Below are positions 27,796 through 63,049 of a DNA stretch of 64,000 bases, piece after piece; the first letter of the stretch is position 1, and the number at the start of each line of letters is the position of its first letter. Where the stretch lies: positions 128,001 through 192,000 of the forward strand of contig JBNKHE010000003.1 of NCBI GenBank assembly GCA_050290185.1. Direction: 5' to 3'. The position numbers and the translations under genes were made by a program. Under the pieces are notes generated by a model. It saw only the letters and a list, made by a program, of their open reading frames with translations. It had not been told where the DNA came from and did no database searches. The DNA is from Pontiella sp. (lineage in GTDB: Bacteria > Verrucomicrobiota > Kiritimatiellia > Kiritimatiellales > Pontiellaceae).

Positions 27796-27815
27796 GCAAT
27801 TTTGTCATAGATTAC

Positions 27816-34194: not shown

Positions 34195-34295
34195 AAAAAT
34201 GCCGCCTGGCCATTCGCTCAACTACATGGAATCCTAGCGGGCAGGCTAGGCGTATTATTCATATATAGCCTATATTTTAAGGAAGGTAAGTTGAT

Positions 34296-35645: not shown

Positions 35646-35731
35646 TTTAAGCGCCAATGGATCTTGGTCGATTTTTTGACATTAGGCCGTTGACTCGCCC
35701 TTGGTGGATAAGTATACATTACGCCCTTCAC

Positions 35732-35818
35732 GCACCCGTGGTGAAATTGGTAGACACGCAAGATTCAGGTTCTTGTGCCAGCAATGGCGTGATGGTTCGA
35801 CTCCATTCGGGTGCACCA
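35732..35818 (+). tRNA. tRNA-Leu(CAG)
   Basis: GCACCCG/CGGGTGC acceptor stem, D-loop TGGTAGAC, anticodon stem CAAGA/TCTTG with loop TT-CAG-GT, long variable arm, GTTCGA T-loop and encoded CCA. Confidence 0.95.
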
Positions 35819-35823
35819 CTTTG

Positions 35824-35854
35824 AAAAAACCCAGTCTTCGGACTGGGTTTTTTT
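35824..35854 (+). terminator. Intrinsic terminator after tRNA-Leu
   Basis: AAAAAA-CCCAGTC-TTCG-GACTGGG-TTTTTTT. Confidence 0.88.
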
Positions 35855-35943
35855 GTGTTCAAGAGGGCGAAATCAGCGGAAAACGTTTTTATGCGCCGAG
35901 GAAAAGCGGTATGTTTCCGGCTCATTTTTTCAGGAGGACTGCG

Positions 35944-38055: not shown

Positions 38056-38076
38056 TCACCTGAACGGCGGTTGTCT

Positions 38077-40643: not shown

Positions 40644-40686
40644 CAGTTATTGCCGAAAGCGCGCACGAGCCTGCGTTTGGTTGGTC

Positions 40687-41104
40687 ATCTCCACGCCCAA
40701 GCGAACGCGCGATGGCCATCTGGTTACGCTCCGCCAATGGTGAGCTGTCGCCAGATGATCCAGAACATTGGCAAGCGTCTGTTCATCAAGCGGGTCATGC
40801 ATGTGACCAGCACCTGCAGCACGCGCCCAAAAAGGTGCGGCGGCGATCGACGTCTTCATGGCACAGCTCGATAACCACGAAGGCTAGCAGGGAGACCCGC
40901 GTATACTTAAATGATTGCTCGCTGAAACATTCTGGCCATTTGCTGGTGCCGTTCTCCGGAATGCTGAAAGGTACCCGCGCATGCCAAGTGCTTGAACGCG
41001 GAGGAACTCAAGCGCTACAACGAAACCGGAGTCGAATTTACCTTCCCGACGCAGATGCTCTACGTGAACAGTGTCGAGGTGCGGAGAGTCTGCTTGGAAT
41101 CTAG
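40687..41104 (+). pseudogene. Degraded MscS-family mechanosensitive channel (C-terminal part)
   Basis: Stitching frames gives STPKRTRDGHLVTL / NGELS / QMIQNIGKRLFIKRVMHVT / KVRR / IDVFMAQLDNHEG* / RVYLNDCSL / ILAICW...* / ELKRYNETGVEFTFPTQMLYV. These are MscS cytoplasmic-domain motifs in the expected order, with several frameshifts and stops. Confidence 0.72.
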
Positions 41105-41138
41105 GGGGTGAAGGGGAGGAACTCCCCTCCAGTCGCCG

Positions 41139-43442
41139 CTACTGGTCGCTGGAGCTCAGGTTGGGGGCCAGCAATTCCTCCGCGCGGCCGATCTGCTGCA
41201 GATCGATCAGGTCCGATAGAATGTTCATGGCTTCGCCGAGAATGAGGTCGTCATTCTGATGCTCATCCTGATCTTCCATGAAGGCATTGTTCTGGATGTC
41301 GTCCAGCTCCTTTTCCGCCACGGCTTCTTTCAGCCTGTTCGTCAACGAGAGGGAGATGATTTTCGTGTCGTAGCGTTCTTTCAACCGGTCACGCCTTGCG
41401 AGATAGTTCTGGAACTCGGGATTGTTTTCCAGACGCTCCTGGGACTGATCCGTCAGCATGGGGATGAGTTCGGTCAAGCCTTTCTGCGTCCGATACATAG
41501 CGGGCCTTATCGTATCCCAAGGCAATGCGTGTTCCAGAGAATCCTCGCCCAGACCCATTACATCGAGATAGGAGGGGATTATAATGTCCGGCGTAACGCC
41601 CTTCAATTGGGTTGAACCACCGTTGATGCGGTAGAATCCGGCCGTCGTCAGTTTGAGCGATCCTTTGTGGTCCCCCAGCGGCATCAGGGTCTGTACCGTG
41701 CCTTTGCCATGCGTCTTTTCGTCGCCGACAATGATGGCACGCTTATAATCCTGCAATGCCGCTGCAAGGATTTCGGAGGCCGAAGCGCTGAGCCGGTTGA
41801 CCAGCACAATCATCGGACCGTCATAGTCCACCTCGGGGTCGGCATCCGGAAGTACCTGTATTCCATTACGTTCCTTAACCTGAACAACGGGGCCGGAGCT
41901 GATGAACAAACCTGCGGTTTCTATGGCTTCAACCAGAGAGCCACCGCCATTGTTGCGCAGATCAAGAATCATTCCGTCAATGCCCTGCGTCACTTGTTCC
42001 TGAATCAGCCTGCGGACGTCGGTGGAAGCCCGGCGGGTGTTTTCATCATTCTGGTCGGCTGTGAAATCGGCGTAGAAGTCGGGGAGGGTGATGACGCCAA
42101 TCCGGCGGGTTTTTCCATCGGAGAGTTCAAGGGGCTTTACCTCACCCTTGGCGGCCTGCTCCTCGAGTTTGACTTCATCGCGCATCAGGTCGATCTTGCG
42201 TGTGCGGGAACCGGAGCGGTCGGATGCAGGAATAATAGTCAGTACCACCTTGGTGTCTTTTTCGCCCCGGATCAGTCGGACGGCTTTGTAGAGCGGCCAG
42301 TGCAGAATGCTCACGGGGGCTTCGTCGCCCTGCGCGACCGCAATAATCTTGTCGCCCGGTTTGAGGCGTCCGTCCTGATCGGCCGGTCCCCCGGGGATAA
42401 TGCGCACAATTTTGGCGGTGCCGTCTTCCGGTCGTAGCATGGCGCCAATACCCACCAGCGAAAGCTTCATATTGATGTCAAAGTCCTCGACACTGCTGGG
42501 CGACATGTAGTCGCTGTGCGGATCATAGACCTGGGTAAACGCGGTCAGGTAGCGTTGCAACAGCATTTCCTCGTCAAACGACTCCATGGTCAGCGTGAAC
42601 TGCTTGTAGCGTTCAAGAATAAACTCTTCCGGTGTCATGTCGGCGTCTTCCAGGGAGTCGTCCGATTCAATGGTTGCGGAAGCCGTTGCGTTGGTGTTTT
42701 CGGTGCCGGCTGCGGAAACCGTATTGCTGGAAGAGGACACGGTGTTCGTCTCTTCGGCGTAAAGTTCCTGCGAAACCAGCCGGGCGATATATTCATTCTT
42801 GAGCCGCTTGCGCCAAAGATCATCCCACGCAGCTTCATCCTTCGGCCATGGGGCATCTTTCCGGTCCCACAGGAAGGATTCATCCTTGTCGGTGTCGAAT
42901 CCCTTCTGAAGCTGTTGTTCTACAAAGGTCAACCGGTTTGCGATGCGTTGTTGCAATATGTCGTAGACGTTGCGGGCAAAAGAGATGTCGCCCTTGCGCA
43001 GTTGTTTGTGCAAATCCGGGGCTTCCTGACTGAAGGAATCGATATCGGACTGGAGGAAATAGCTGTGCGTCGGGTCGAGCGAGTCGATGAACAGCTTGAA
43101 GGCATTCGTGGAAATGTGGCTGTCCATGGGTAGCTGGTTGAGATGGAAAACGGGCAGGGAATAGGCCACCGTCCGGCTGATTCGTTTTACGTCGAGATCG
43201 CTTTTGGGGAGGGGCTCGATCGGCTTTTCATCCACTTTGGGTGCCGTTTCCGCGACCACGTTTGTTTCCGTCGTCCCGTTTGTTGCGCTGAAACTTTCCG
43301 ACTTTTCCGAAATATCGTTGGTGATCGTTGGAGGATATGTTTCTGCGGGGTTCTCTTTCGAACTGCATGCAACGAGTGTGATGCAAAGTGCGCTGAGCAG
43401 GAATGTTGCGGATCCCAATGTCAAGTATCTCTTATTTTTCAT
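41139..43442 (-). CDS. prc: Carboxy-terminal processing (tail-specific) protease, lipoprotein
   Basis: Lipobox LVAC, YDPHSDY, PDZ (GIGA), LDLRNNGGG, SASASEI, THGKGTVQ and GGSTQLKGV. Confidence 0.9.
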   Translation of the reverse strand: MKNKRYLTLGSATFLLSALCITLVACSSKENPAETYPPTITNDISEKSESFSATNGTTETNVVAETAPKVDEKPIEPLPKSDLDVKRISRTVAYSLPVFHLNQLPMDSHISTNAFKLFIDSLDPTHSYFLQSDIDSFSQEAPDLHKQLRKGDISFARNVYDILQQRIANRLTFVEQQLQKGFDTDKDESFLWDRKDAPWPKDEAAWDDLWRKRLKNEYIARLVSQELYAEETNTVSSSSNTVSAAGTENTNATASATIESDDSLEDADMTPEEFILERYKQFTLTMESFDEEMLLQRYLTAFTQVYDPHSDYMSPSSVEDFDINMKLSLVGIGAMLRPEDGTAKIVRIIPGGPADQDGRLKPGDKIIAVAQGDEAPVSILHWPLYKAVRLIRGEKDTKVVLTIIPASDRSGSRTRKIDLMRDEVKLEEQAAKGEVKPLELSDGKTRRIGVITLPDFYADFTADQNDENTRRASTDVRRLIQEQVTQGIDGMILDLRNNGGGSLVEAIETAGLFISSGPVVQVKERNGIQVLPDADPEVDYDGPMIVLVNRLSASASEILAAALQDYKRAIIVGDEKTHGKGTVQTLMPLGDHKGSLKLTTAGFYRINGGSTQLKGVTPDIIIPSYLDVMGLGEDSLEHALPWDTIRPAMYRTQKGLTELIPMLTDQSQERLENNPEFQNYLARRDRLKERYDTKIISLSLTNRLKEAVAEKELDDIQNNAFMEDQDEHQNDDLILGEAMNILSDLIDLQQIGRAEELLAPNLSSSDQ

Positions 43443-43589
43443 GAAAGTTCCCGGTTTTTATAAATAAGGGACAACATGCTATGGGTCATTACCATTGGAA
43501 ACAAGTCCGCATTCCCTCTCATATTCCTTCGTTTTTGTATTCCCCCCTGGTTTTTATGCCTGTATTTTCGGGCGCTCAAACTGACTTAA

Positions 43590-45215
<1,626 letters not shown>

Positions 45216-45234
45216 CCGAGCCGTTCGTGTAATT

Positions 45235-45269
45235 ATAAAATGCGGGGTCTAACCCCGCATTTTATTTTT
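45235..45269 (+). terminator. Intrinsic terminator after pgi
   Basis: Perfect inverted repeat ATAAAATGCGGGGT-CTA-ACCCCGCATTTTAT followed by a T-run. Confidence 0.82.
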
Positions 45270-45633
45270 GTACCAAAAATAAAATCGAGGCCTCAATAAT
45301 ACACATATTGCATACATATATCATGTGAATGTGTGCCGCTTTAATCGTGACATTCAGGTACGTTTTTTTTTAGAGCCGCGAACTTTATTGGCCGATATTC
45401 TGCTCATATATGCGTATGTGGGATTGCCTAGGTCTCAGGCAAGCAAGGTGGAATGCTTTAACCTGGCAGTTGGATCACGTATGGAATATCGGGGAAAAAA
45501 TCTGCCAGGCGCTGTTGATTCGTTCAACCTTTCCATTTCGTAAGGTTGTTTTGGTCGTGCTTTATCATGATCAGGTTACCCTGCGCATGGGATTAGTCCC
45601 ATTCTTGAACAGCTGATTTTGAGACTTTAAAAT

Positions 45634-47007
45634 ATGGAATGGATTGAAATAACAGGTGTGGTGGTATTCATCTCGACGGTATTCATCGTTCTGGGAATGT
45701 GGCAGCGGTCTGTCCAGCGGGCCGAGGAGGAACGTCTGGCCGAAGAAGTACGGGCCGCCGAAGAGGAAGGCGCGAACCAGGCGCTTACCCAGCACCCCCA
45801 GATCGATACGAGTCGCTGCTTAGGTTGCGGCAGTTGCGCGGCGGCTTGTCCCGAGCACGGAGTGATTGCTATCGTTGACGGCAAGGCCCGGTTAGTTCGC
45901 GCATCTCATTGCGTCGGACACGGGAGTTGCGAACAGGCCTGTCCCGTCGGAGCCTTGATGGTCGGACTGGGCGATCTCTCTTCGCGGGTGGATATCCCCG
46001 TATTGAGCGACGAGCGCGAAACGACGGTTCCAGGGGTGTTTATTGCCGGAGAACTAACCGGTATCGGTTTGATTCGCAATGCGGTCACGCAGGGGACTCA
46101 GATCACCGACACGATCGCCGGACGTCTCAAGAGGCAGGGCCCGCGATTGGGTGACGAAGGCATGGTCGATATCCTGATTGTGGGATGCGGACCCTCCGGG
46201 ATTGCGGCCACACTGCGCGCCCACGAACTGGGCCTGCGCTACATGACGATCGATCAGGACGATCTGGGCGGTACCGTCCGGAAATATCCCCGCAATAAAA
46301 TGACCCTGACACAACCGGTCGATCTGCCACTGTATGGCCGGATGAAGCGCACCCAGTATTCCAAGGAAGAGCTGATTGCACTATGGGAAAAGGTTTTCAG
46401 AAAAGAGGGGATCGAAGTGCGGACTGGTGTGAAGTTCACCGGTCTGGAACCGCGATCCGACGGTGTGCTTTCTGTGGAGACCAGCGCCGGTTCCGTACTC
46501 TGCCGGTATTGCATTCTCGCGCTGGGCCGCCGCGGTACGCCGCGCCGGTTGGGAGTCCCCGGTGAAGATTCGGAGCGGGTGCTTTACCAGCTCATCGATG
46601 CTGCGGAATACAGGCAGAAGAAGGTGCTCGTGGTGGGCGGTGGCGACAGCGCCATCGAAGCGGCCCTCGCCTTGGCCACCCAGGCCGGTAACACGGTGAC
46701 GCTTTCCTATAGGCGCAACGCGTTCTTCCGAATCAAGTCCAGAAATCGCGAAGGACTGGAAAAAGCCTCCGCGGAGGGCAAGGTCAGCGTGATCCTGAAT
46801 TCGCAAGTGCAACTGATCGACCGGGACTACGTCAAGATTGATGTCAACGACGAAGAGGGCGGCGATCCGGAAGTAAAGCGCGTCGCGTATGACTATGTAT
46901 TCGTCTTCGCCGGAGGCGAACCGCCTTATCCGTTATTGCAGAAGGTAGGAGTCTCATTCGGCGGAGAAGATAAGGCGGAGCCGGACTCGATCAAGGAGGC
47001 GAGCTAG
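45634..47007 (+). CDS. Membrane-anchored 4Fe-4S ferredoxin / FAD-NAD(P)H oxidoreductase fusion
   Basis: N-terminal TM. Cluster motifs CLGCGSCAAACP and CVGHGSCEQACP. TTVPGVFIAGE, FAD motif IVGCGPSG, NAD(P) motif VVGGGDSA and YRR. Confidence 0.85.
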   Translation: MEWIEITGVVVFISTVFIVLGMWQRSVQRAEEERLAEEVRAAEEEGANQALTQHPQIDTSRCLGCGSCAAACPEHGVIAIVDGKARLVRASHCVGHGSCEQACPVGALMVGLGDLSSRVDIPVLSDERETTVPGVFIAGELTGIGLIRNAVTQGTQITDTIAGRLKRQGPRLGDEGMVDILIVGCGPSGIAATLRAHELGLRYMTIDQDDLGGTVRKYPRNKMTLTQPVDLPLYGRMKRTQYSKEELIALWEKVFRKEGIEVRTGVKFTGLEPRSDGVLSVETSAGSVLCRYCILALGRRGTPRRLGVPGEDSERVLYQLIDAAEYRQKKVLVVGGGDSAIEAALALATQAGNTVTLSYRRNAFFRIKSRNREGLEKASAEGKVSVILNSQVQLIDRDYVKIDVNDEEGGDPEVKRVAYDYVFVFAGGEPPYPLLQKVGVSFGGEDKAEPDSIKEAS

Positions 47008-47009
47008 CC

Positions 47010-47909
47010 ATGTCCGAATCGGTCCGTACCCGCGAAAAAACCAGATTTCGAACGCCGGCGATATGGGTGGTGCAATCCCTCGTACTCGGGATCTTTGCCT
47101 GTTTCATTATTTTTCATTGGGACTATTACAGTCTGCCGCGTGCTGAACGGCCCTTTCACGCTGCGCACTCCTCTCTTCGTTCGTCCGGACTGGCCGGACT
47201 TTGGATGGGCGTCGGGGCGGCCTCCCTTTTTGTGCTGAACCTGGGCTATCTGGTACGCAAGCGCCTGATTCGTTTCTCCTGGCTGGGCCCCTTGCGCCAA
47301 TGGATGAACTTTCATGTGGTCACCGGTATTGTCGGGGGCGGTTGCGTGGCCGTGCATATGGCCATGGCCCCGTCCAGTGCCATGGGGACCATGGCCCTGA
47401 TCGCCCTGTGCATTACGGTGGTCACGGGCATTGTCGGCCGCACCATCTACATCCGTGTTCCGCGTTCCGCCGAAGGGCGGGAGCTGGAATTTAGGCAGGT
47501 GAAGGATCAGTTGGAACAATGCCGGCTGGAACTGGAGCTAACCGGCGTCCATGCCAATTGGCTGCATGGTGAAAAACCGCAGGAAGGCGTACGACACACC
47601 AGCTTGATGGGGGGATTTGCTGCCCTTATCGTGGGGGACCGCCAGCGCCGGCACGATTATCGCCAGCTCAGGAAAGAGATTCTGGGCTCGGCGAGACTGA
47701 AGGAATCTGCGGCGCATATTCTTCCGATAGCCCAAGCCTATTGCATGCATTGGCAGTGGTTTGTCCGCTACTATGAACTGCGAAACCTGATCTCCTCCTG
47801 GCGCTTTTTCCATCGCTGGCTGGCGATTCTGATGCTCTTTGTGGTGCTGGGCCATGTGGTTGTGGCGATTCGGTTCGGCGGTCTATCGCTTTTCGGGGGG
47901 AGTCATTAA
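47010..47909 (+). CDS. Inner-membrane protein, probable di-haem cytochrome b (ferric-reductase-like)
   Basis: Several TM helices, two of which carry His pairs at i/i+14 (HVVTGIVGGGCVAVH and HRWLAILMLFVVLGH). Confidence 0.65.
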   Translation: MSESVRTREKTRFRTPAIWVVQSLVLGIFACFIIFHWDYYSLPRAERPFHAAHSSLRSSGLAGLWMGVGAASLFVLNLGYLVRKRLIRFSWLGPLRQWMNFHVVTGIVGGGCVAVHMAMAPSSAMGTMALIALCITVVTGIVGRTIYIRVPRSAEGRELEFRQVKDQLEQCRLELELTGVHANWLHGEKPQEGVRHTSLMGGFAALIVGDRQRRHDYRQLRKEILGSARLKESAAHILPIAQAYCMHWQWFVRYYELRNLISSWRFFHRWLAILMLFVVLGHVVVAIRFGGLSLFGGSH

Positions 47910-49645
47910 TGAAAGTGACCCCAAAAATGATGATGTGGGTTTTCGGACTGCTGACGATCGGCGGGCTGGCCTTGTTTCTCGCCCTGTACCAAAGTTCGCC
48001 GGGACCTCTTACTACAGCCCATGCCACTGCGGTGCCGGGCAACATGATCTGGTCGTGCAAGAAGTGCCACTCCGATGACGGAATGGAATCGGGGTGTTTG
48101 TCGTGCCACGCCGAAATCGCGAACCAACTACACGAAAAAACCGGTTTTCACACCTATCTGCGTACCCAGTCATCCGCCAGTTGCGAACAGTGCCACCCCG
48201 AGCACCATGGGGCCGACTTCCCGCTGGTGAGCGACGTGTCGTGGCAGGGCACGGATACCAATGCATTCAAGCATCCGCAGGTGGAATTCAAGCTGGAGGG
48301 CAAGCACGACGAACTGGCCTGCAAGCAATGCCATACCGAAAAATTCCATGAACCCGTTGTCTTGGCCGATTTTCCTGATCAGGTTCGGACGGATACCATG
48401 CTAGGCCTGAACCAGGAGTGCATCAGTTGCCATGTCGATGTGCACAAGAGCGGCGAGAAGACCCGCGACTGCACCCAGTGCCATGATCAAAATGCCTTCA
48501 AGCCGGCTCCCTTCTTCGATCATAATAAATATTTTGTGCTGGATGGCCCCCATGCCACGGCGGCCTGCGCGGCCTGCCACCAAACCGATGTTGCGCCTGA
48601 GCTGATGGAAGGCGAACGGGATCTGAAGTTCGGACCGGTCAAAGGCAAGAAATGCGCTGATTGCCACGAATCCCCGCACCGTTTTGACAAGCAACTGCAG
48701 GGCGACTGCATGCGCTGCCACAAGGGCACCGATGAAAAATGGGTGATGGGGCAGCGAGGCGTGGATGTAGCCTTCCATGATCACTTCGGATTCGTTCTGC
48801 AGGGCGCGCACGCCAAGGTGGAATGCGCTAAATGCCATGCGCCGGAGCTGGAAACCTATACTGCGCGCTTCCCGGATCCCGCCGCACCCGGTTACAACCG
48901 CCAGGCGGATCAATGCAGCAGCTGCCACAAAGATCCCCACGACGGCCAGTTCAAGGAACACTATCCTTCCTGCGCCCAGTGCCATACCGTGGATCGTTTC
49001 ATGCCCAGTACGCTGGGGCCGGCTGACCATCCCGAACGCTATCCGCTGAAGAACGGCCACGTGGCGGCAGCCTGCAACCAGTGCCACAAGATCGAAGCGG
49101 GCAGTGACGTGCGCCGGTTCAAGGGCACCGCCAGCTCCTGCAAGGAATGCCACGCCAACCCGCACGGAAGCCAGTTCGATAAGGAGCTCGCTCAAAACGA
49201 TTGCACCGCCTGCCATGCCCCCGATTTTTCCACCTTCAAGATCAAGCAGTACAAGCACGAGAACATGCGCGCTTTCTTCCAGGGCAAGGGCCATGCCAAG
49301 GCGGCGTGTATCCAGTGCCATGCCGAGCCCGCCTCCGACCAGGAAATACTTCAGTACCGCGGGACACCGACCACGTGCGCGTCCTGCCACACGGATATCC
49401 ACCGCGGTCAGTTCCTGCAGCTTGGTCAAACGCAGTGCGAGCGTTGTCATGGTTCGTTCGATCAATGGAAAGCAGACCGCTTCGAACATGATCGCGATTC
49501 CAAATTCCTGCTGGATAAGGCGCATGTAAAGGTTGAATGCGCCTCCTGTCACCTTCCTGTAATGCAACCCGACGGCCAGTCGGTTGTCCAATATCGACCG
49601 TTAACCACCCGATGTGAGGATTGTCATGGTTTCCAAAAACAATAA
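47909..49645 (+). CDS. Multihaem cytochrome c (20 CxxCH)
   Basis: N-terminal TM/signal followed by SPGPL. 20 CxxCH motifs counted by hand, in trihaem-like repeats. TAATG overlap with the upstream gene. Confidence 0.92.
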   Translation: MKVTPKMMMWVFGLLTIGGLALFLALYQSSPGPLTTAHATAVPGNMIWSCKKCHSDDGMESGCLSCHAEIANQLHEKTGFHTYLRTQSSASCEQCHPEHHGADFPLVSDVSWQGTDTNAFKHPQVEFKLEGKHDELACKQCHTEKFHEPVVLADFPDQVRTDTMLGLNQECISCHVDVHKSGEKTRDCTQCHDQNAFKPAPFFDHNKYFVLDGPHATAACAACHQTDVAPELMEGERDLKFGPVKGKKCADCHESPHRFDKQLQGDCMRCHKGTDEKWVMGQRGVDVAFHDHFGFVLQGAHAKVECAKCHAPELETYTARFPDPAAPGYNRQADQCSSCHKDPHDGQFKEHYPSCAQCHTVDRFMPSTLGPADHPERYPLKNGHVAAACNQCHKIEAGSDVRRFKGTASSCKECHANPHGSQFDKELAQNDCTACHAPDFSTFKIKQYKHENMRAFFQGKGHAKAACIQCHAEPASDQEILQYRGTPTTCASCHTDIHRGQFLQLGQTQCERCHGSFDQWKADRFEHDRDSKFLLDKAHVKVECASCHLPVMQPDGQSVVQYRPLTTRCEDCHGFQKQ

Positions 49646-51515
49646 GCCAGCGCTAAAGATTGCCGTATGGGTCGTATTCCTGCTCGGACTCGTGGTGGCC
49701 GGGTGCCAGTTTGTTGTGCCCCGCCAGGAATGGAACAAGAAGGCCTGGGGCCCGTTGGTTCCACACACCAAGTTTCCCGGGGATTGCAGTCTTTGCCACC
49801 TGCCGGATCGGTGGGACAAACTGCGTGATGATTTTAGTTTCGATCATGAAAAGGAGACCGGCTATGCGCTTGAAGGCGCCCATGCCGATGCGGCCTGCTT
49901 GCGGTGCCACAACGACCGGGGGCCAGTGGAGGTATATGTGGCACGAGGATGTGCCGGTTGTCACGCCGACCCTCATGCAAGTACGATGGGCCTGGATTGC
50001 GAACGTTGCCATAGCCAAATGACCTGGGAGCCGACGGGGCTAATCGGCGAACATGCCCGTACCCGCTTCCCGTTGATGGGCTCCCATGCCATTGCCACAT
50101 GCGAAAGCTGCCACGAAGGTGCGGCCGCAGGAGAATTCCGCGGCGCACCCTTGGAGTGCGATATCTGCCACCGCGACGATGCGGCTCAAACCACGGATCC
50201 CAACCATGTGGCCAATGGATGGGTTTCAGATTGCCAGCGTTGCCACAATCCCGTGGGTTGGAACGGGGCGAATATCGTGCATGACTTCTTCCCGCTCACC
50301 GGCGGGCATAGCGGGGTGAACTGCGTGCAATGCCATACCACGCCGGGCGATTTCTCCGGGTTGTCGCAGGATTGCTATTCCTGCCATGAGCCGGACTACC
50401 AGAGTGCGCCCAGCCATTTGACAGAGAATTTCTCGCATGACTGCACGCAGTGCCATTCAAAAAATGCATGGACACCTGCCACATTCGACCACTCCTTCTT
50501 CCCGCTCACCGGTGAGCACAAGGGCTTGTCTTGTTCGGAGTGCCATACGGGTGGAACGTATTCGGGATTGTCAACGGACTGCGCTTCATGCCATGGATCC
50601 GACTTCGATAGCGCGCCGAACCATGTGGCCCAAAGCTATCCGCAGACCTGCGAAGATTGTCACAGTACATCAGGCTGGACGCCGGCCTCATTTGATCATT
50701 CCGCTTTTCCGCTGACCGGTGCTCACGCGGATTCAACCTGTGCGCAATGCCATTCGGGCGGTGTCTACGCCGGATTGCCTTCCAACTGCTATTCATGCCA
50801 TGACACCGACTATCAGGGCGCACCCGACCACGTTGCCCTGAACTTCCCGCAAACCTGCGAGCAGTGCCATAGCACCACGGCCTGGACTCCTGCGGCCATT
50901 GATCACTCGTTCTTCCCGTTGACGCAGGGGCATGCTGGCGTGGGTTGTGCAGAATGTCATCAAGGCGGCACCTATAGTGGTTTGTCGCAGGACTGCTATT
51001 CCTGCCATGATAACGATTTCCAAGGCGCGCCTGATCATGTGACCCTGAACTTCTCGCACGACTGCGAGCAGTGCCATACCCGTTCGGCCTGGACGCCGGC
51101 GAGCTTCGATCACTCCTTCTTCCCGCTGACGCAGGGCCATTCCGGACTTACCTGCAACACGTGCCATGAGAACGGGACATACAGCGGTCTCTCGCAGGAC
51201 TGTTATTCGTGTCACCAAAGTGACTATCAGGGTGCGCAGGATCACGCGAGCCTTGGTTTTCCTCATGATTGCACGCAGTGCCATTCGACCTCGTCGTGGG
51301 GATCGGCCAGCTTCTCGCACACCGATTTTCCGCTTCGCGGAAACCACGATGTTTCGTGCACGCGGTGCCACAATACGGGCAGCACGCAGACCTTTACCTG
51401 TCTGAACAATTGCCATGGGAAGAGTTCAACAGACAGCGATCATAGTGAAGTCAGGAACTACAGCTATACATCATCGGCCTGCTACAACTGCCACCCCGAT
51501 GGAAGAGAGGATTAG
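49626..51515 (+). CDS. Multihaem cytochrome c lipoprotein (24 CxxCH + 1 CxxxCH)
   Basis: GAGGA RBS before ATG 49626, lipobox VVAGC, and 24 canonical motifs plus CLNNCH counted by hand. Confidence 0.92.
   Translation: MVSKNNKPALKIAVWVVFLLGLVVAGCQFVVPRQEWNKKAWGPLVPHTKFPGDCSLCHLPDRWDKLRDDFSFDHEKETGYALEGAHADAACLRCHNDRGPVEVYVARGCAGCHADPHASTMGLDCERCHSQMTWEPTGLIGEHARTRFPLMGSHAIATCESCHEGAAAGEFRGAPLECDICHRDDAAQTTDPNHVANGWVSDCQRCHNPVGWNGANIVHDFFPLTGGHSGVNCVQCHTTPGDFSGLSQDCYSCHEPDYQSAPSHLTENFSHDCTQCHSKNAWTPATFDHSFFPLTGEHKGLSCSECHTGGTYSGLSTDCASCHGSDFDSAPNHVAQSYPQTCEDCHSTSGWTPASFDHSAFPLTGAHADSTCAQCHSGGVYAGLPSNCYSCHDTDYQGAPDHVALNFPQTCEQCHSTTAWTPAAIDHSFFPLTQGHAGVGCAECHQGGTYSGLSQDCYSCHDNDFQGAPDHVTLNFSHDCEQCHTRSAWTPASFDHSFFPLTQGHSGLTCNTCHENGTYSGLSQDCYSCHQSDYQGAQDHASLGFPHDCTQCHSTSSWGSASFSHTDFPLRGNHDVSCTRCHNTGSTQTFTCLNNCHGKSSTDSDHSEVRNYSYTSSACYNCHPDGRED
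50274..51311 (+). repeat. Intragenic tandem repeat, five ~207-bp (69-aa) trihaem units
   Basis: Units starting xxH-S/D-F/A-F-P-L-T begin at ~50274, 50484, 50691, 50898 and 51105. Each has three CxxCH. Confidence 0.85.
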
Positions 51516-51546
51516 CGCTGTGGAACCGGAATCCACCCCGTTGGAA

Positions 51547-53226
51547 ATGCCTATGAATACAAGATGCTTTAGATTGAGAGGGAAGGACTGGATCGTGGCG
51601 CTCCTGCTGTCCGTTTCTGCATTGCCATGCGCCTCAAAGGCCGAGATGCAGAATGTTCCGGCGCATATCACGTACCGGATCGAGGAGGGCGTCTATGTGG
51701 ACATTGGCTCCGGCAGCGGATTGGAGCGGGGCATCAAGGGTAGCCTGCTGCTGGAGGACGGCCGTTCCTTCACCTTCGAGGTCATGCAGGCTGCAAACTC
51801 ATCCGCCCTCCTGCGGTTCGGGGAGCAGGGCGTCGATCTTGCCGCCGGCAACGAGATCCTGCGGGTCGAGCTGGTATTCGATGACGCGCAACAGAATAGT
51901 GAGGAAACCCCGGTCATCCCCCCGGCCGCCACCACCGCCGCGCCGGAAGAGCCGGAACCTTTTGTGCCGCTCCTGGAGCGCATGAACAAGATGCCGGCCT
52001 TGACGCAGAGCAAGAATGTGAGCCACGGAAATTTCGGCGTACGGCAAAGCATGCAGACCGGTACCGACAACCAGTTGGACCGGATGGTGACGAGGCTGTA
52101 CACCTCGGGCAGCATCGACCGCATTGAAGGCACCGAATGGAGCCTGAAATGGTCGGGCAGTGCGCGCTACCGCACCGGCGATGCCTACGTCGACCACCCC
52201 GACTACCAGAGCCTCCAGCCGATGATCTACAATCTGATGCTGCAGCATCCCCTGGAGGCGGGCGGCTTTGTCCGGCTTGGACGTTTTTTGCCCTACGAAC
52301 TGCCGGGGGTGGGCTATATTGATGGCGGCCAGCTTGAAGTCTCAAACGGAGGCCTCTTGCGCTTTGGCGTATTGGCGGGCTTGAAACCCGGTCGTGTGAA
52401 TCTCGAAGTAACGGCCGACGAGCCGACCGTGGCCGGCTATACCACGCTGGAGGCAGGCAAGCAGGGATCGTCCTACTATTCCGGTACGGCTGGCCTGATG
52501 GCTTCGCTCTATCAGGGAGAGGCCAATCGTTTTGCTCTGTTGTTCGATCAACGGGCCAGTCTCGGGCCGAAGCTGGATGTCATTTCGACCGCGCAAATCG
52601 ATTTTGGTGTCGCCAATACCACCAACAGCGCCACCCAGCTTTCGCGCTTTGATTTGACGGCATCGTCCCGCATTGCCCGCAATCATACGCTGCGGGCGGG
52701 GATGGATCACTGGGAACGGGCCGATACGCCGTCGGAACGCGATCTACTCACGATCGTGGACAACAGCTTGTTTGATTCGGGCTACTGGCGCTACTGGGTG
52801 GGGGCGCGCCATCGTCTGCCGCTCAAACTGAATCTCAACGAAGAAGTGGCCTACACGGTTTCCGACAACACGGATGCCGCCATGCGGTGGCGCGTGGGAT
52901 TGACGCGCACAGGGTTTTTCCAGTGGACCTCCGCCAGCATTTCGTCCACGATCTATAATCTGGAATCGCAGGGGAACAGCGGTTTCGGCGGATTGCTATC
53001 CGCCTATCTGCCGTTCTGGGACAGCCGGCTTTCGGTGCGTCCGTCCGCCAGCATGCGCTGGCTGGACCCGGACAACGGAGGCGATGGGCTTACCATGTCC
53101 TATTACTCGGTTTACCTTGATGCGCGCATAAACCGAAAGTGGCTGCTTTCCGGCGGCTTGACGCAATCCATTGGCGACGGGGCCGACGCCACATCGTTCG
53201 ATCTCGGTTTACGCTACAGCTGGTAG
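51547..53226 (+). CDS. Outer-membrane beta-barrel (putative porin of the cytochrome cluster)
   Basis: Signal peptide (WIVALLLSVSALPCASKA), amphipathic strands and terminal beta-signal FDLGLRYSW. Start 51547 or 51553. Confidence 0.72.
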   Translation: MPMNTRCFRLRGKDWIVALLLSVSALPCASKAEMQNVPAHITYRIEEGVYVDIGSGSGLERGIKGSLLLEDGRSFTFEVMQAANSSALLRFGEQGVDLAAGNEILRVELVFDDAQQNSEETPVIPPAATTAAPEEPEPFVPLLERMNKMPALTQSKNVSHGNFGVRQSMQTGTDNQLDRMVTRLYTSGSIDRIEGTEWSLKWSGSARYRTGDAYVDHPDYQSLQPMIYNLMLQHPLEAGGFVRLGRFLPYELPGVGYIDGGQLEVSNGGLLRFGVLAGLKPGRVNLEVTADEPTVAGYTTLEAGKQGSSYYSGTAGLMASLYQGEANRFALLFDQRASLGPKLDVISTAQIDFGVANTTNSATQLSRFDLTASSRIARNHTLRAGMDHWERADTPSERDLLTIVDNSLFDSGYWRYWVGARHRLPLKLNLNEEVAYTVSDNTDAAMRWRVGLTRTGFFQWTSASISSTIYNLESQGNSGFGGLLSAYLPFWDSRLSVRPSASMRWLDPDNGGDGLTMSYYSVYLDARINRKWLLSGGLTQSIGDGADATSFDLGLRYSW

Positions 53227-53435
53227 GCGCGGATCCATGCAAGGGGGCATCGGATTCCATAGACAGGTGCTTGTCAGAGAATGGGTGTAAATGCGGCCTG
53301 CAGGTGTGGTAAGGAATGCTATGGGGTACATCATCAGCCTGTTACAACTGTCATTCCAACGGACGGGAATAGCCCGTGGCAGACAGGCATCCCCACACAC
53401 GTCTTTGGGGCGTAAACCCGGTTCGGATAAAGCTG

Positions 53436-54653
53436 CTACCAGCCGCCTAGTTCTTCGGCAAGATCGACGGTGATGGTTTCCGCCATGTATTCGAATTTGG
53501 CGGATTGAAGGGCGGCGTCAAGCATGCGTTCGCGGACGGAGATCAGGTCGCGCACTTGCTCCAGCGGAACGTCGGCCAATACTTCGAGATCTTCATTAAG
53601 CTGCCTGATGACTGGGCCCGTTCGCTTTTTTTGCTCGGCAACCTGCATGTAGTAGGCGTTGGCCATGTCCAACATGACGCGCAGCCGGTCTTCAATGATT
53701 CTGCGTTGCTGGTCCTGGGCCGCAATGAACAGGGCTTGCTGATGCTGGTAGACGGCAATGTCGGGATTGCGGGTGCCCCAGGGGAGCACGATCGAGGTCG
53801 ACAGTTCCCATCCGCTGGATCCGTTGTCATAGTCTACGCGATAGGCGGGCTGGAGATACTTGAGGCGGAAGCCATCCTCCGAACGCGCCGCTTCTTCGGC
53901 CAGCTGCATGGCGCGCAAATCGATCCCGAACTGGCGGTAGTCGGAGCGTTGTTCCAAGGCGGTTTTAAGCAGGGACTTGATTTCAAGCTGCGAAGGTATA
54001 TCGATGACCGCCATCGTGGAAAGCTGTTCCAGATCCGCATCGGGTCCAACGACCATTCTGATGCGCCGCTGCGCATCCAGAAAGTTGTTCCCCAGATCGG
54101 CTTGGTCGTTTGCCAGCGCAAGGTAGGTGCTGTAGAGCCGGGCCCGGTCGCTTACGGCTAACTGGTTCAACGTCACTGCTTGGTCGGCCTTTTTCAGATA
54201 GGGCTCGATGAAACGTATTTCGTTTTCAGTCAGCGCAAGCTGTTGCTTGAGCATACGGTAGGTGCAGAAGTCGCGGTAAATTGCGATGACATCCTTCCAC
54301 TCCAATGTCTTGATCCGCAGTTGTTCGGAGCGGGCGGCAAGGGTCAGTTGCTCATGGAGGCGCTTCTTGCTCCAGCGGCCGGGCAGGTAGACCCGCAGGG
54401 CGAGTCCGACATCTTCGTCGCTGATGCTTGGGCGTAGTTCGAGCCCGTAGTCGGAGCGGGAGCGTGCAAAGGTTTTCGACTGCTCCAATTCCGTCGATTC
54501 ATCGATCAGGGCACCTGCGTTTTGGTTGCGGATCGTGTCGTGGAAAGAAGCCTGTTCCATGAGGGCGCTAAGTGTTTGGTCGGATGTTGCAAGAACCGTT
54601 GAGGAGATGCAGCAGAGTGCGGGGAGAACGATGGCGCAAGTGCGGAGTTGCAT
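53436..54653 (-). CDS. TolC-family outer-membrane efflux protein (divergent)
   Basis: Signal peptide and twice-repeated helix/beta-hairpin pattern (LALRVYLP; LSTSIVLPW). ALEQRSDY motif. TAATG overlap with the HlyD gene. Confidence 0.65.
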   Translation of the reverse strand: MQLRTCAIVLPALCCISSTVLATSDQTLSALMEQASFHDTIRNQNAGALIDESTELEQSKTFARSRSDYGLELRPSISDEDVGLALRVYLPGRWSKKRLHEQLTLAARSEQLRIKTLEWKDVIAIYRDFCTYRMLKQQLALTENEIRFIEPYLKKADQAVTLNQLAVSDRARLYSTYLALANDQADLGNNFLDAQRRIRMVVGPDADLEQLSTMAVIDIPSQLEIKSLLKTALEQRSDYRQFGIDLRAMQLAEEAARSEDGFRLKYLQPAYRVDYDNGSSGWELSTSIVLPWGTRNPDIAVYQHQQALFIAAQDQQRRIIEDRLRVMLDMANAYYMQVAEQKKRTGPVIRQLNEDLEVLADVPLEQVRDLISVRERMLDAALQSAKFEYMAETITVDLAEELGGW

Positions 54654-55666
54654 TATTCCCTCCCAAACCATTGTTCAAAGACGGAGATGTCCGGCACCAC
54701 AACTACTTGTTCGCCGGGCAGCAGATCGCCATCATCGATTTCGATCACAATCCTGCGCCCGCGGAGCAACTGGTCGCTGAATCCCGTGTTGACCGGAAGC
54801 TTGCGGATATCCGCTGTGATGGATTGGACTTCTCCATGGAATATGCTGCGGTTGGCCTCGGTTATGACACGGCAACGTTCGCCGACGGCAAGGTCCACGC
54901 GATTTGCTTCGGGCATGAAGGCAATAACCCGGCGGGTTGAAATATTACTGATGCGTACGACCGGATCGCCGGTTTCAACAATATCGCCCGGCTGGTGAAG
55001 GACTTCGGCAATGACCCCGGTGGTCGTTGCCACCAGACGGCACTGCGACTCCTGAAGCTGCTGGAGGTCGTCGGCATTGAACTGTTCCGCTTCGCTGGCG
55101 GCAATGGCGAGGCGTTCCTCAAGCTGGGCGATCAGATCCGGATAGTGCGGCAACACTTCCTTAATGGCCTCAATTTGCGGTCGGAGATCCTCGGTCTCCT
55201 GCTCCAGTACGAGATGTCTGGCCAGCAGGTCTTTACTTCGTTTCCATCGGGCTTCCAGCACCTTAAGTTCAGCGGCGGTTTTGGCTTGTTCCAGCTTCAT
55301 GCTTTCGAGCTCGTAGCGGATGGAACGGACCTTGTCCCTGGTTTTCATCAGCGAGGCCTGGTCCATCAGCAGATCCGTAGCCAGCGATTCGTTGTCGAGT
55401 TCGCCGATCAGTTGACCGGCTTGGACGGTGTCGCCCATTTCGACCAGCAGGCTCTTGAGCCGGGCGTCTTCCAGCGGCGAAACATATTCATAGATCCGCT
55501 CGGCTGCACCGGGGAACTTGACGCGATACAACCCGCCCGGCAGCAGGACGAGCACCGCAATGGCGGCGGCGATCCATACCAGCCATGGCCATCCGCTGAA
55601 AAACTTGCGGATCAGATGGCGACGTCTTTGCCGCAGGGGAGGACGTTTGAAAGTTTTATTAGTCAT
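54653..55666 (-). CDS. HlyD-family periplasmic adaptor (membrane fusion protein)
   Basis: N-terminal TM. Two lipoyl half-motifs (LVEMGDTVQAGQLI; GVIAEVLHQPGDIVETGDPV) flank a coiled coil. Start ATG 55666. Confidence 0.82.
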   Translation of the reverse strand: MTNKTFKRPPLRQRRRHLIRKFFSGWPWLVWIAAAIAVLVLLPGGLYRVKFPGAAERIYEYVSPLEDARLKSLLVEMGDTVQAGQLIGELDNESLATDLLMDQASLMKTRDKVRSIRYELESMKLEQAKTAAELKVLEARWKRSKDLLARHLVLEQETEDLRPQIEAIKEVLPHYPDLIAQLEERLAIAASEAEQFNADDLQQLQESQCRLVATTTGVIAEVLHQPGDIVETGDPVVRISNISTRRVIAFMPEANRVDLAVGERCRVITEANRSIFHGEVQSITADIRKLPVNTGFSDQLLRGRRIVIEIDDGDLLPGEQVVVVPDISVFEQWFGRE

Positions 55667-55682
55667 GGTGTCTCGTTCTCGC

Positions 55683-56384
55683 TTAAAGTTCCACAGTGGT
55701 GCGTTGCATGACCAGATTGACCTCGGCAATGGTGTCGAGGGCCTCTAGCTTTTTCACGAGGTCAACCTGGTAGGACGGGTCGATCAGCCGTACCTGATAG
55801 GAATATTCCAGCAGGTCGCCCTGAACCGCTTCGCGCATGGCGATAAGCATGTAGGCCGAGCAGCACTCGGCCAGAACCTTGTCTACATCTTCGCGGGCAT
55901 GATCGTCGTCCGCTTCGACAAGAAAACGGAGCATGGCTTCGTAGCGCCGGTGGGTGGCAAACGGTGCCCAGTGGAGCAGGGCAATGACCGAGCTGAGCAA
56001 TATGCATCCCGATACCGCTACGGCAAACATGCCCGCCCCGCAGGCAATGCCCAGACCAAGGGCTGCGAACAGGAACATCATATCGCGCGGATCGCGCACC
56101 ACCGTACGGAAGCGGATCAGCGAAAGCGCTCCCAGTACCCCGATGCCACGGGCAAGGCTGTCGCCCATCGACATCATCACCATACAGGTGATCATGCCGC
56201 CGAGAATGAGCGTGTGGACGAACGATCGCGAATAGGAGAGCGATTGAAAGGTCAACTGGTATAGTTTGGCGATCACCGAGCAAAGCACGAAGCTCAACAG
56301 CATGGCCGATATGACGTGCTGTAGGCTCACGCTCTGCGAGCTGCTTGCCACCGACATTAAATCCAACAATCCTCCCGAATTCAT
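55683..56384 (-). CDS. DUF4956 family membrane protein
   Basis: YSRSFVHTL, GALSLIRFRT and GLGIACGAG, with an ACT-like C-terminal domain. AAGGAG RBS. Confidence 0.85.
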   Translation of the reverse strand: MNSGGLLDLMSVASSSQSVSLQHVISAMLLSFVLCSVIAKLYQLTFQSLSYSRSFVHTLILGGMITCMVMMSMGDSLARGIGVLGALSLIRFRTVVRDPRDMMFLFAALGLGIACGAGMFAVAVSGCILLSSVIALLHWAPFATHRRYEAMLRFLVEADDDHAREDVDKVLAECCSAYMLIAMREAVQGDLLEYSYQVRLIDPSYQVDLVKKLEALDTIAEVNLVMQRTTVEL

Positions 56385-56396
56385 AACACTCCTTGC

Positions 56397-57230
56397 TTAA
56401 TCAAACATAAATTCATCGGAAAAGGGAGCGTCCCCTTTTCCGATCAAAAGGTTTTCCATCCAAATAGCCGTCGAGTACTTGCAGTTGCCGCAACGGATCA
56501 GTTCGAAATGCTGTACCAGTTCCACCATCCACGTCGGAACCTGTTCGGTACATTTGACCTCCAGGACCAGCGTGGAATCCTTGCGGTTTCTTACGATACC
56601 GCTGTCCATGGAAATAAAGCGGCCGCCGTCCCCCCAGTTATAGGCATCGAAGACGGGCTGGTAGCAAAGCTGGGAATCGAAGGTGATCCGGGCGTAATGG
56701 TCGAAGATTCCCGTAAACGCTTCGCGGCAGTAGCGGATGTAAACCTTCGGCTCGGCGCCGATTTCCTGCGTCAACCGCACAAAGTCACGGAAGGCTTCGC
56801 GTTCCTTCACGGAGTTCAGGTTCAGCTCGCTGACATGTCGTTTCAGGATGCCGGGCTTCCAGTCGCTAAAGGGAATGCAGGCGCGCGATTTGATAATACG
56901 GTCATAGTACTTACGTTTGATTTCGAGAAATACCGGTGCATCACCGGGAGGCTTTCCATAGGTGCGTACGCGCAATTTGAAGCGGTGGGTGGCTTCCCAT
57001 TCCTTGGCATGGTGCAGCGACATGGAAGGGGAGTCGTACTGGAGCGTGGTAATGTAATACTTTCCGCCGGCAGCTTCGCAGTGCTTGTCTGTTATGCAAT
57101 AAGGCTTGATGAAATCCTTGATCGGTTCAACCAGCGCGCGCGGTATGATATACTTTGCCTCAAAGCGATCCAGCTCCGTTGAAAAATCGGCTCCATCCTT
57201 AATCGCATTGATATGGCTATTCTTATTCAT
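56397..57230 (-). CDS. VTC-domain polyphosphate polymerase family protein
   Basis: RFEAKY, TLQYDS, KLRVRTY, FLEIKRK, YCREAF, RITFD, VLEVK and CKY tunnel-metalloenzyme motifs. Confidence 0.85.
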   Translation of the reverse strand: MNKNSHINAIKDGADFSTELDRFEAKYIIPRALVEPIKDFIKPYCITDKHCEAAGGKYYITTLQYDSPSMSLHHAKEWEATHRFKLRVRTYGKPPGDAPVFLEIKRKYYDRIIKSRACIPFSDWKPGILKRHVSELNLNSVKEREAFRDFVRLTQEIGAEPKVYIRYCREAFTGIFDHYARITFDSQLCYQPVFDAYNWGDGGRFISMDSGIVRNRKDSTLVLEVKCTEQVPTWMVELVQHFELIRCGNCKYSTAIWMENLLIGKGDAPFSDEFMFD

Positions 57231-57751
57231 AGATATAGATTCATTGATAGCACTTATATATTCCTAACAACTAGCAAAAAAAGGTTAGGACGAACGAACT
57301 GTGAAATAGATGGATTCTAAACTTCGAATAGGGTTGAAGGTCGATATACCAACGCATGCCCATCCGAATTATGCCGGGTGCTCGCGAAACACGTGCATGC
57401 GCGATACCCGCAGCGGTCCTTGGAATGTGGATTAAAAACTGGAAGGTGAAAGTCTGGATGTCCGCGGAACCCGGAAGCCAACTGCATCAGTCCGAACGCC
57501 CGGTGCCGTTCGGGCCGGATATCGTGCTTGAATAGATCTTGTTTGGCGTCATAACTACCATTGTATAAAGGTCTATTGAATATGTTCTGGTCTAATTCTG
57601 TCTGAATGTTAAGGATTGGATAGGTTGACAAAAGGGATGGTTTAAATAATAAAAAAGGCCATTTGCGATCACCTAATTCAAAGTCTAGGCATATAGATAG
57701 TACAACCTTGAACTGGTTGCTTGGTTAACATTGCTCCAAAAGGTGGAAAAT

Positions 57752-63004: not shown

Positions 63005-63049
63005 AACTGACCGGGTCCGCGCAAATGTGTGAGGATCCGGTGGGTCTTA

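Follow-up and report, generated by a model that had tools for sequence, protein, structure and literature searches.

What feeds electrons into a cytochrome wire that reaches from the inner membrane to the cell surface? Known Gram-negative routes of extracellular electron transfer (EET) start at the quinone pool, and since 2017 there have only been guesses at how the predicted porin-cytochrome type PCC3 is tied to metabolism. The question is raised here by five plus-strand genes, g1 to g5, at positions 45634-53226 of a 64,000-nucleotide stretch of a Pontiella sp. genome (the window, to whose positions all coordinates refer unless a contig is named). They encode a membrane-anchored iron-sulfur flavoprotein, a five-helix membrane protein predicted to bind two b haems, two multihaem c-type cytochromes and a predicted outer-membrane barrel. 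An initial annotation of the window had described these genes with the same coordinates, anatomy and topological order, and the open reading frames (ORFs), translations and motifs agree with it. In our reading, whose chances of being right and wrong we put about level, this is a PCC3-like operon in which a split NADPH oxidase (NOX)-like input, running from NAD(P)H through FAD and Fe-S clusters to haem b, would feed the wire outward without needing quinol. Repeatedly fused to g2, g1 gives a concrete, biochemically testable hypothesis for the inner-membrane entry point of PCC3.

A PCC3-like cluster with a flavoprotein partner

PCC3 is a predicted system known from genes alone. Its parts are a porin, multihaem cytochromes outside the cell and in the periplasm (the periplasmic one with a median of 21 haems) and a conserved membrane protein (He et al. 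2017, PMC5566968), and a Gallionellaceae survey gives the same four parts (PMC9900912). The membrane protein shared by PCC3 and PCC4 is described as about 300 aa long, with five helices, SGxxG in helix 4 and WX3HX13H in helices 3 and 5 (PMC5566968). The product of g2 agrees with this description in length (299 aa), in its five transmembrane (TM) helices and in both WX3HX13H motifs, with T for S in the TGxxG of TM4. The 22-strand predicted barrel of g5 corresponds to the porin. By predicted localisation, g3, with 20 haems against about 21 in the periplasmic cytochrome, and g4, with 24-25 haems and a lipobox, would take the periplasmic and extracellular roles, and both share the low residues-per-haem ratio and the repeat-rich build of PCC3 cytochromes. 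The likeness described here is one of features, and the hosts are bacteria of the Planctomycetes-Verrucomicrobia-Chlamydiae (PVC) group, not Proteobacteria.

What the present cluster adds is a conserved, sometimes fused, TM-anchored flavoprotein with FAD and two predicted [4Fe-4S] clusters: without it the five-gene cluster is the published PCC3 type, and the flavoprotein partner is the new element. The article text of He et al. contains neither "flavoprotein" nor "FAD", and its supplement text contains no flavin or pyridine-nucleotide terms, though Supplementary Figure 4 (PCC4 redox-gene domains) might show a flavin domain (PMC5566968); in the literature searched we found no description of a flavoprotein partner of a PCC3-type membrane protein. 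In PCC4 subgroup II, which has Planctomycetes among its hosts, an Fe-S gene (pfam13247) immediately precedes the gene of the membrane protein, and the two were at one time annotated as a fusion (PMC5566968), much as g1 adjoins g2. PCC4 differs, however, in having three periplasmic cytochromes, of 4, 5 and 10 haems, but no extracellular cytochrome, and its description names no flavin domain; pfam13247, moreover, is not among the best 25 of the 26 Pfam matches of g1.

To follow the pair across genomes we relied on g2. A word-indexed search returned 190 relatives, the named ones from metagenome-assembled genomes (MAGs) of Verrucomicrobia, Kiritimatiellales and Phycisphaerales, and an exhaustive profile search of 1.84 billion proteins gave 2995 representative clusters at E<=0.001, 1597 at 1e-10 and 286 at 1e-30. 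Around g2 relatives in species-representative genomes we fetched 47 loci (identified below by L numbers), mostly from Planctomycetota, with some from Kiritimatiellota/Verrucomicrobiota and one from Elusimicrobiota; one spurious locus (L047, a Gammaproteobacteria MAG with no haem ORFs) remains in every denominator of 47. All five genes were found in 30 loci by blastp and in 35 when a hidden Markov model (HMM) was used for g5, and the incomplete loci are mostly cut by contig ends (L001, L011, L016, L024, L034, L035 and L036). The flavoprotein gene is present in 41 of the 47, as a rule immediately before g2; in L025, L027, L028, L037 and L041 it follows the barrel gene instead, and in L030 it is divergent. 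Among the six loci lacking it, two are cut by the contig upstream (L001, L036), two end just past g2 (L024, L034), one is spurious, and in L020 the gene is absent. L020, which holds only g2 and one 11-haem ORF, looks degenerate or different, and so does L014, with no cytochrome ORF of at least seven CXXCH.

In six of the 47 loci g1 and g2 form a single ORF: L011 (Elusimicrobiota) and L040, L042, L043, L045 and L046 (Planctomycetota; 725-759 aa in L040, L042 and L046). All six fused ORFs carry both WX3HX13H motifs together with the FAD and NAD(P) glycine motifs, and by the pattern used four have both Fe-S motifs and two the first only. The C-terminus of g1 is joined to the basic N-terminus of g2, a geometry that fits a cytoplasmic flavoprotein. 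In the five planctomycete loci the gene order runs from the fusion through an 18-23-haem cytochrome and a distant g5-like protein (62-122 bits by HMM) to cytochromes of 7-22 haems. A second protein set (n=152), made up of 150 representatives of the exhaustive search and two proteins from a search for longer relatives, contains 28 proteins with both domains, 17 of them covering at least 350 g1 profile positions (near full length). Two single fusions of other kinds, P0125 (962 aa), which joins g2 to a 23-CXXCH cytochrome, and P0253 (an 838-aa fragment with a g1 tail, g2 and six CXXCH), could be sequencing-error read-throughs, the g2/g3 overlap being one base.

A quick maximum-likelihood tree of g1 plus g2, left unrooted, placed the five planctomycete fusions in one clade (SH-aLRT 100) and L011 elsewhere, suggesting that the fusion arose at least twice. 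These natural fusions lend strong Rosetta-stone support to a functional link between flavoprotein and membrane protein, as the initial annotation had supposed, and the co-conservation of the gene set that it had counted on is likewise seen in the 35 complete loci.

The five gene products

The membrane protein g2 has no Pfam or NCBIfam match at E<=0.01. It shows five hydrophobic helices behind a strongly basic N-terminus, and the two His pairs at i/i+14 spacing to which the initial annotation had drawn attention are H102/H116, within W98x3H102x13H116 of TM3, and H268/H282, within W264x3H268x13H282 of TM5. These four residues and H53 are invariant (18/18 family members), both glycines of T139-G140-xx-G143 in TM4 are invariant too, and the TM4-TM5 loop of about 115 residues is conserved. 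By the positive-inside rule the basic N-terminus and this loop would be cytoplasmic, which would place H102 and H268 on the cytoplasmic side and H116 and H282 on the periplasmic side. Two WX3HX13H motifs occur in 135 of the 152 wider relatives, and g2 is predicted to bind two b haems. When the 18 family members were scanned singly against Pfam at E<=1, weak matches appeared to DUF4405 (PF14358; 17/18, best 1.6e-05), Ferric_reduct (PF01794; 13/18, best 5.8e-06) and Ni_hydr_CYTB (12/18), all of them dihaem-b membrane families. Several g2 relatives carry a precomputed PF14358 label, and a DUF4405 protein has been shown to bind haem b (PMC11334425). ESM Atlas neighbours of g2, which serve as leads only, are "hypothetical protein" clusters of Acidobacteriota, Gemmatimonadota and Myxococcota.

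The flavoprotein g1 opens with a hydrophobic helix (about residues 5-24) that would serve as a TM anchor, followed by a ferredoxin-like dicluster domain and a two-Rossmann module, over which Pyr_redox_3 and Pyr_redox_2 match residues 179-443. Its Fe-S motifs read C62xxC65xxC68xxxC72P and C93xxH96xxC99xxxC103P, and the flavin module contains GCGPSG, GGGDSA and SYRR. The ligands C62, C65, C68, C72, C93, C99 and C103 are each kept in 39-40 of 40 aligned relatives; in the second Fe-S motif (45910-45942, residues 93-103) a histidine, H96, stands at the expected Cys position, and it does so in 35 of the 40. In [NiFe] hydrogenases a His-ligated cluster, the distal one, ends the chain, and by analogy that of g1 may be the exit point towards the b haem.

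Among solved structures the closest relatives of g1 are YpdA/Bdr (7a7b, 8.7e-18), thioredoxin reductases (TrxR) and TrxR-type ferredoxin-NADP reductases (FNRs). Its relatives among curated NCBIfam families, YpdA/Bdr, thioredoxin reductase and AhpF, all score far under cut-off, with 139.4 bits against 339.9 for TIGR04018 (YpdA/Bdr) and 77 against 343 for TIGR01292 (thioredoxin reductase). YpdA/Bdr and the TrxR-type FNRs are nearest to the flavin module, and FNRs of this type also have no conserved CxxC; g1 differs from both in its TM anchor, its dicluster ferredoxin domain and an apparently rearranged FAD domain. We considered g1 as a thiol-disulfide reductase and ruled this out because the only CxxC of its flavin module, C290/C293, is kept in 8/40 and 4/40 relatives, whereas the Fe-S ligands are kept in 35-40 of the same 40. 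Overall, g1 appears to combine a ferredoxin and an FNR-like NAD(P) flavoprotein in one chain.

Two further stretches of g1 are conserved. A strongly conserved segment with the pattern VPGVFIAGELxGIxLIRxA (residues 126-164, 46009-46125) lies N-terminal to the first GxGxxG and is similar to the FAD-binding motif found near the C-terminus of TrxR-like enzymes; its HMMER alignment to the C-terminal end of 7a76 had an insignificant score, and the FAD domain may be circularly permuted or otherwise rearranged. The other stretch, GGGDSA...SYR(R/K)xxFxRxK, includes an SYRR...R pattern that we take to resemble HRRxxxR, the NADPH signature of E. coli TrxR. The anchor carries no twin-arginine motif, and basic residues follow the helix. 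A periplasmic g1 was rejected: a domain loaded with cofactors would call for a twin-arginine signal, which is lacking, and the geometry of the fusions is contrary to it.

Together, g3 and g4 hold 44 canonical CXXCH motifs and one CX3CH, matching the figure of about 45 c-haems given in the initial annotation: exactly 20 CXXCH lie in g3, and 24 and the CX3CH in g4. The multihaem motifs exceed chance, since across all 3.58 Mb of the genome only 15 stop-to-stop ORFs of at least 100 aa reach three CXXCH, with g4 and g3 ranking first and second among them. In g3 a single N-terminal hydrophobic helix is followed by SPGPLxxxHA, and the conservation of this motif across homologues would fit a helix retained as an anchor; g3 is predicted to be periplasmic and is possibly anchored in the inner membrane. 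A weak solved relative of g3 is 3ouq (3.5e-04).

Translation of g4 probably begins at ATG 49626, which GAGGA precedes by 7 nt. Behind a hydrophobic stretch stands a lipobox, VVAGC (+2 Gln), and in our reading g4 may be a lipoprotein of the cell surface. The strict lipobox pattern occurs in 22 of 39 g4 homologue ORFs, the four closest included, and by eye many homologues outside it have a Cys directly behind the hydrophobic stretch. Across residues 207-553 the haem sites of g4 are spaced by 30, 16-17 and 23 residues, giving 69-aa trihaem units and a 207-nt period in the DNA. Two stretches of g4 match the c7-type trihaem model TIGR04257 (46 bits, cut-off 40), a domain that we take to be related to the GSU1996 type. 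In this match and in its regular repeat g4 is like the c7-type "nanowire" cytochromes of Geobacter, from which it differs in being much longer (24-25 haems), lipidated and beside a barrel; a sequence search returned no solved relative of g4. Against TIGR03508 (DmsE/MtrA; cut-off 192.2 bits), g3 reaches 62.7 and g4 48.5 bits.

The last gene, g5, has no Pfam or NCBIfam match, and its start is likely to be ATG 51547, which is common to 19 aligned homologues. AlphaFold2, run from 19 sequences (mean pLDDT 77.9, pTM 0.71, barrel blocks mostly 84-95), predicts, behind a signal-peptide-like N-terminus, a small beta domain at residues 36-111 and a barrel, joined by a disordered linker (113-152). The top Foldseek matches are FimD/PapC ushers, TonB-dependent receptors and porins (from E 4e-11, TM-score 0.4-0.47), with no MtrB chain among the 50 matches listed. 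On this model g5 is, as had been expected, a barrel, one of the usher/receptor/porin size class and without a match to a named family. By standard barrel geometry, 22 strands correspond to a backbone diameter of about 4 nm, and the g5 barrel would in principle be wide enough for a haem chain. The small beta domain (51652-51879) is itself conserved (ITY..GVYVD.G...GL..G), has no family match and is followed by a Pro/Ala/Glu-rich linker; it could be a periplasmic docking or plug domain.

In having a periplasmic cytochrome, a barrel and a lipoprotein cytochrome in one operon, the cluster is like MtrCAB, MtoAB, PioAB and the Geobacter OmaB-OmbB-OmcB systems. It differs in that g3 and g4 fall outside the DmsE/MtrA family and have 20 and 24-25 haems instead of 8-12, and in that g5, outside Pfam, has 22 predicted strands against 26 in MtrB. 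MtrCAB-type and Geobacter systems draw on quinol via CymA, ImcH or CbcL. The verrucomicrobial porin-cytochrome clusters already described are a separate set with 8-haem periplasmic cytochromes (PMC5615132).

The five genes are closely packed, with gaps ranging from -20 to +31 nt. The g1-g2 junction reads TAG-CC-ATG with AAGGAGG just 5' of it, g2 and g3 share one base in a TAATG stop/start overlap, g3 and g4 overlap by 20 nt (counted to the g4 ATG 49626), and 31 nt separate g4 from g5 (counted to the g5 ATG 51547). Upstream, a terminator-like hairpin behind the phosphoglucose isomerase gene marks the predicted boundary of the operon, and the gene downstream of g5 is convergent. Because of these tight junctions and flanking features, g1 to g5 look like one transcription unit. 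A promoter scan did no better than shuffled sequence (5 found against 4.1 +/- 1.8 expected), and Rfam gave no match within 45000-53600. The features are collected in Table 1.

Table 1. Features of the g1-g5 cluster, in window positions.
Feature	Positions	Strand	Basis or remark
Terminator-like hairpin, 14 pairs then T run	45235..45265	+	Consensus scan; 3' of the upstream phosphoglucose isomerase gene
g1, membrane-anchored iron-sulfur flavoprotein, 457 aa	45634..47007	+	Pfam, NCBIfam, alignment of relatives
g1 ferredoxin-like dicluster domain, residues 55-107	45796..45954	+	Pfam Fer4_10/Fer4_7/Fer4_21
g1 FAD/NAD(P)-binding two-Rossmann module, residues 178-445	46165..46968	+	Pyr_redox_3, 3.9e-38
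g2, inner-membrane protein, 299 aa, 5 TM, two predicted b haems	47010..47909	+	Motifs, hydrophobic helices
g3, multihaem cytochrome c, 578 aa, 20 CXXCH	47909..49645	+	Motif count, N-terminal helix
g4, lipobox multihaem cytochrome c, 24 CXXCH and one CX3CH	49626..51515	+	ORF opens at GTG 49614
g5, predicted outer-membrane protein, 559 aa from ATG 51547	51547..53226	+	ORF opens at 51415; AlphaFold2
g5 barrel proper, 22 predicted strands, residues 158-558	52018..53220	+	AlphaFold2

A possible electron path and its alternatives

In the proposed path, NAD(P)H would reduce FAD in the cytoplasmic domain of g1, and electrons would pass from FAD to the two g1 Fe-S clusters, about 30 residues from the membrane anchor, and on to the cytoplasm-side b haem of g2 (H102/H268). 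Once across the membrane, at the periplasm-side haem (H116/H282), they would move on to the 20-haem g3, which, perhaps tethered by its N-terminal helix, would be long enough to bridge the periplasm. From g3 they would reach the 24-25-haem lipoprotein g4 and, through or at the g5 barrel, an external acceptor. The logic would be that of an NADPH oxidase or ferric reductase split in two, with another flavoprotein and with a cytochrome wire replacing O2. Outward flow would be electrogenic, both aided by and dissipating the inside-negative membrane potential, and the gain would therefore lie in restoring NAD(P)+ to a cell that ferments sugars (more acetate, substrate-level ATP), not in strict respiration.

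The nearest functional likeness is to NADPH oxidases, ferric reductases and the MsrQ-Fre pair, in which electrons likewise run from NAD(P)H through a flavin and two stacked b haems (TM3, TM5) to an acceptor on the far side. In E. coli, electrons taken from NAD(P)H by Fre go by way of MsrQ, a haem protein of the membrane, to periplasmic MsrP, and quinol has been argued against as the donor (PMC12525009); as with g1 and g2, the reductase, which in that pair is soluble, and the membrane haem protein are separate proteins. The differences lie in the parts: g1 is a TrxR/YpdA-like two-Rossmann protein with a ferredoxin domain and not an FNR-type dehydrogenase domain or Fre, g2 has five TM helices and stays under the Ferric_reduct cut-off, and the acceptor here would be a multihaem cytochrome.

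The mechanism would also fit the physiology of cultured relatives that reduce Fe(III), anthraquinone-2,6-disulfonate (AQDS) and elemental sulfur (S0). The initial annotation had called the lineage one not known to it for EET; against this, Pontiella and Kiritimatiella in culture ferment sugars and at the same time reduce ferric citrate, AQDS and S0 (PMC7356697), and porin-cytochrome operons are noted, without detail, in Kiritimatiellaeota bins (bioRxiv 10.1101/2020.04.01.018762). The remark holds only in part; the route used by the isolates is described as unclear (PMC7356697). The present cluster is probably not that route, because the isolates did not appear among the 47 loci.

Several observations weigh against the proposal. 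Taken alone, g2 stays below the cut-offs of the families that its relatives weakly match, with 15.2 bits to DUF4405 (cut-off 26.7) and 16.3 to Ferric_reduct (cut-off 28). Foldseek found nothing at E<=0.001 in the PDB for the g2 model (pLDDT 73.6), with human NOX5 at rank 43 (prob 0.35). VIA-align returned generic helical bundles, among which dihaem CybB (5oc0; Z 7.5, rank 23, root-mean-square deviation 3.4 over 130 residues) lies within helical-bundle noise, and a profile search of PDB sequences from the g2 family gave chance-level rows only (E>=0.51). The Ni_hydr_CYTB family, which is also among the weak matches of g2 relatives, is one we take to be quinone-reactive. The genome has two MqnA-family genes and so probably makes menaquinone, leaving room for a quinol link. 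The donor (NADPH, NADH or another) is read only from the motif resemblance described above, contact between g1 and g2 from fusions and synteny, and co-transcription of the five genes from their spacing.

Occurrence points the same way. In two Pirellulales MAGs (L038 and L039, at about 8990-12600 of each locus) a short g2 (209-aa ORF) is followed by a 16-CXXCH cytochrome and then g1, with no barrel found in the 18.6 kb of L038 or the 14 kb of L039, which suggests that the core of g2, cytochrome and g1 need not serve an extracellular acceptor. Moreover, g2 was found in 3 of 251 sampled genomes of the class, the window's own included, and in 1 of 13 other genomes of the genus, and on this sampling the cluster is too rare to explain metal reduction across the lineage. 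Cultured Pontiella species are absent among the 47 loci, according to a pattern-based scan that can miss them.

Some of these points would suit a wire fed by quinol, in line with the proposal of He et al. that the PCC3/PCC4 membrane protein is a quinone-active cytochrome b (PMC5566968). In that case g2 would be a quinol dehydrogenase and g1 an accessory, whether as an alternative input, a redox-poise regulator or an NAD(P)H:quinone link, and the Ni_hydr_CYTB matches, the MqnA-family genes and the place of CybB among the weak fold matches of g2 would all find a use. We nevertheless think a quinol feed unlikely, given that 41 of the 47 loci have g1 in company with g2, that fusion of the two occurs in at least two lineages independently, that tying an NAD(P)-type flavoprotein permanently to a quinol oxidase would have no obvious purpose, and that no quinone-site motif could be identified in g2. 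A use other than EET to minerals or electrodes is suggested by the two barrel-less Pirellulales loci and by the fact that NOX-type modules reduce O2: the chain might reduce, or store electrons for, substrates that are soluble or periplasmic (scavenging of oxygen or peroxide in an anaerobe, or polysulfide/S0), with the barrel serving export or anchoring. Pontiella isolates do reduce S0, dimethyl sulfoxide (DMSO) and AQDS besides Fe(III) (PMC7356697). Yet 35 of the 47 loci have beside the core both a barrel and a cytochrome of lipoprotein type, a combination characteristic of trans-outer-membrane conduits, and we give this reading only a small share of the probability.

The initial annotation had allowed electrons to flow in either direction, and TrxR-type FNRs are reversible enzymes, so that electrons from Fe(II), reduced humics, sulfide or a partner cell could conceivably reach NAD(P)+ via g2 and g1. 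PCC3 was discovered in Fe(II) oxidisers and modelled there as an uptake route (PMC5566968). For most donors, however, the way to -320 mV would be uphill and against the inside-negative potential, no proton-coupled element or other coupling site is visible in g1 or g2, and the closest relatives in culture ferment sugars and pass electrons to external acceptors (PMC7356697); flow inward is thus doubtful, and we regard such uptake as improbable.

Should the outward, NAD(P)H-fed path be correct, EET would act in these organisms as a redox-balancing valve for fermenters and not as respiration. It could bear on the unexplained reduction of Fe(III) and AQDS by Kiritimatiellales and Planctomycetes, though the isolates tested may lack the cluster, and a compact NAD(P)H-to-electrode module would be of interest to bioelectrochemistry. 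A wider form of the proposal, which we hold more tentatively and think somewhat more apt to fail than to hold, is that a 45-haem wire spanning both membranes is driven by a split NOX-like enzyme, in which a TM-anchored NADPH flavoprotein with two Fe-S clusters docks on a dihaem-b membrane protein, and serves fermentative PVC bacteria as a quinone-free, potential-assisted sink, and that the flavoprotein/dihaem pair is the missing inner-membrane entry of PCC3-type conduits generally.

Phylogenetic placement and genomic surroundings

In the tree of g1 plus g2, the window groups with three Pontiella/Verrucomicrobiota MAGs (support 100), this group is nested among the Planctomycetota loci L005-L007 (100), and another Kiritimatiellales locus, L009, falls elsewhere. 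In this unrooted tree, the pattern fits lateral spread within the PVC group. The flanking genes encode an aspartate kinase, an FGE-sulfatase-type protein, coproporphyrinogen oxidase, a Tsp protease, phosphoglucose isomerase, an HlyD-type protein and a VTC protein, and no mobile-element genes were seen in the ORFs of 25274-45215 and 53436-63535, the two parts of the window covered.

The genome encodes the cytochrome c maturation system on which the initial annotation had made its reading depend: genes for ResB and a CcsA-type protein lie side by side at 183-186 kb of another contig (C8), a System II arrangement. Directly upstream of them, at about 161-181 kb of the same contig, is a second cytochrome island of seven stop-to-stop ORFs with 19, 12, 11, 9, 6, 4 and 4 CXXCH. 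On a further contig (C4, 305.1-307.0 kb), adjacent ORFs with 4 and 5 CXXCH are NrfH/NrfA-like by haem count only. Three RnfD/NqrB-family genes are present, and neither NuoH nor MenA was found in the genome (95.5% completeness).

Other features of the window lie outside the cluster. The gene for coproporphyrinogen III oxidase, an enzyme of haem synthesis, lies 5 kb upstream (39603-40643, +), a proximity that may be coincidental. A 784-aa protein (35701-38052, +) matches GreA/GreB only at residues 630-765, its N-terminal ~630 residues having no Pfam match, and a 1757-aa protein (57731-63004, +) combines CotH kinase, three lamin-tail, beta-helix/NosD and chitobiase C-terminal domains. Beside the HlyD-type gene, a VTC-domain gene and a DUF4956 gene are adjacent (55683-57230, -), a pairing that suggests a polyphosphate-related function.

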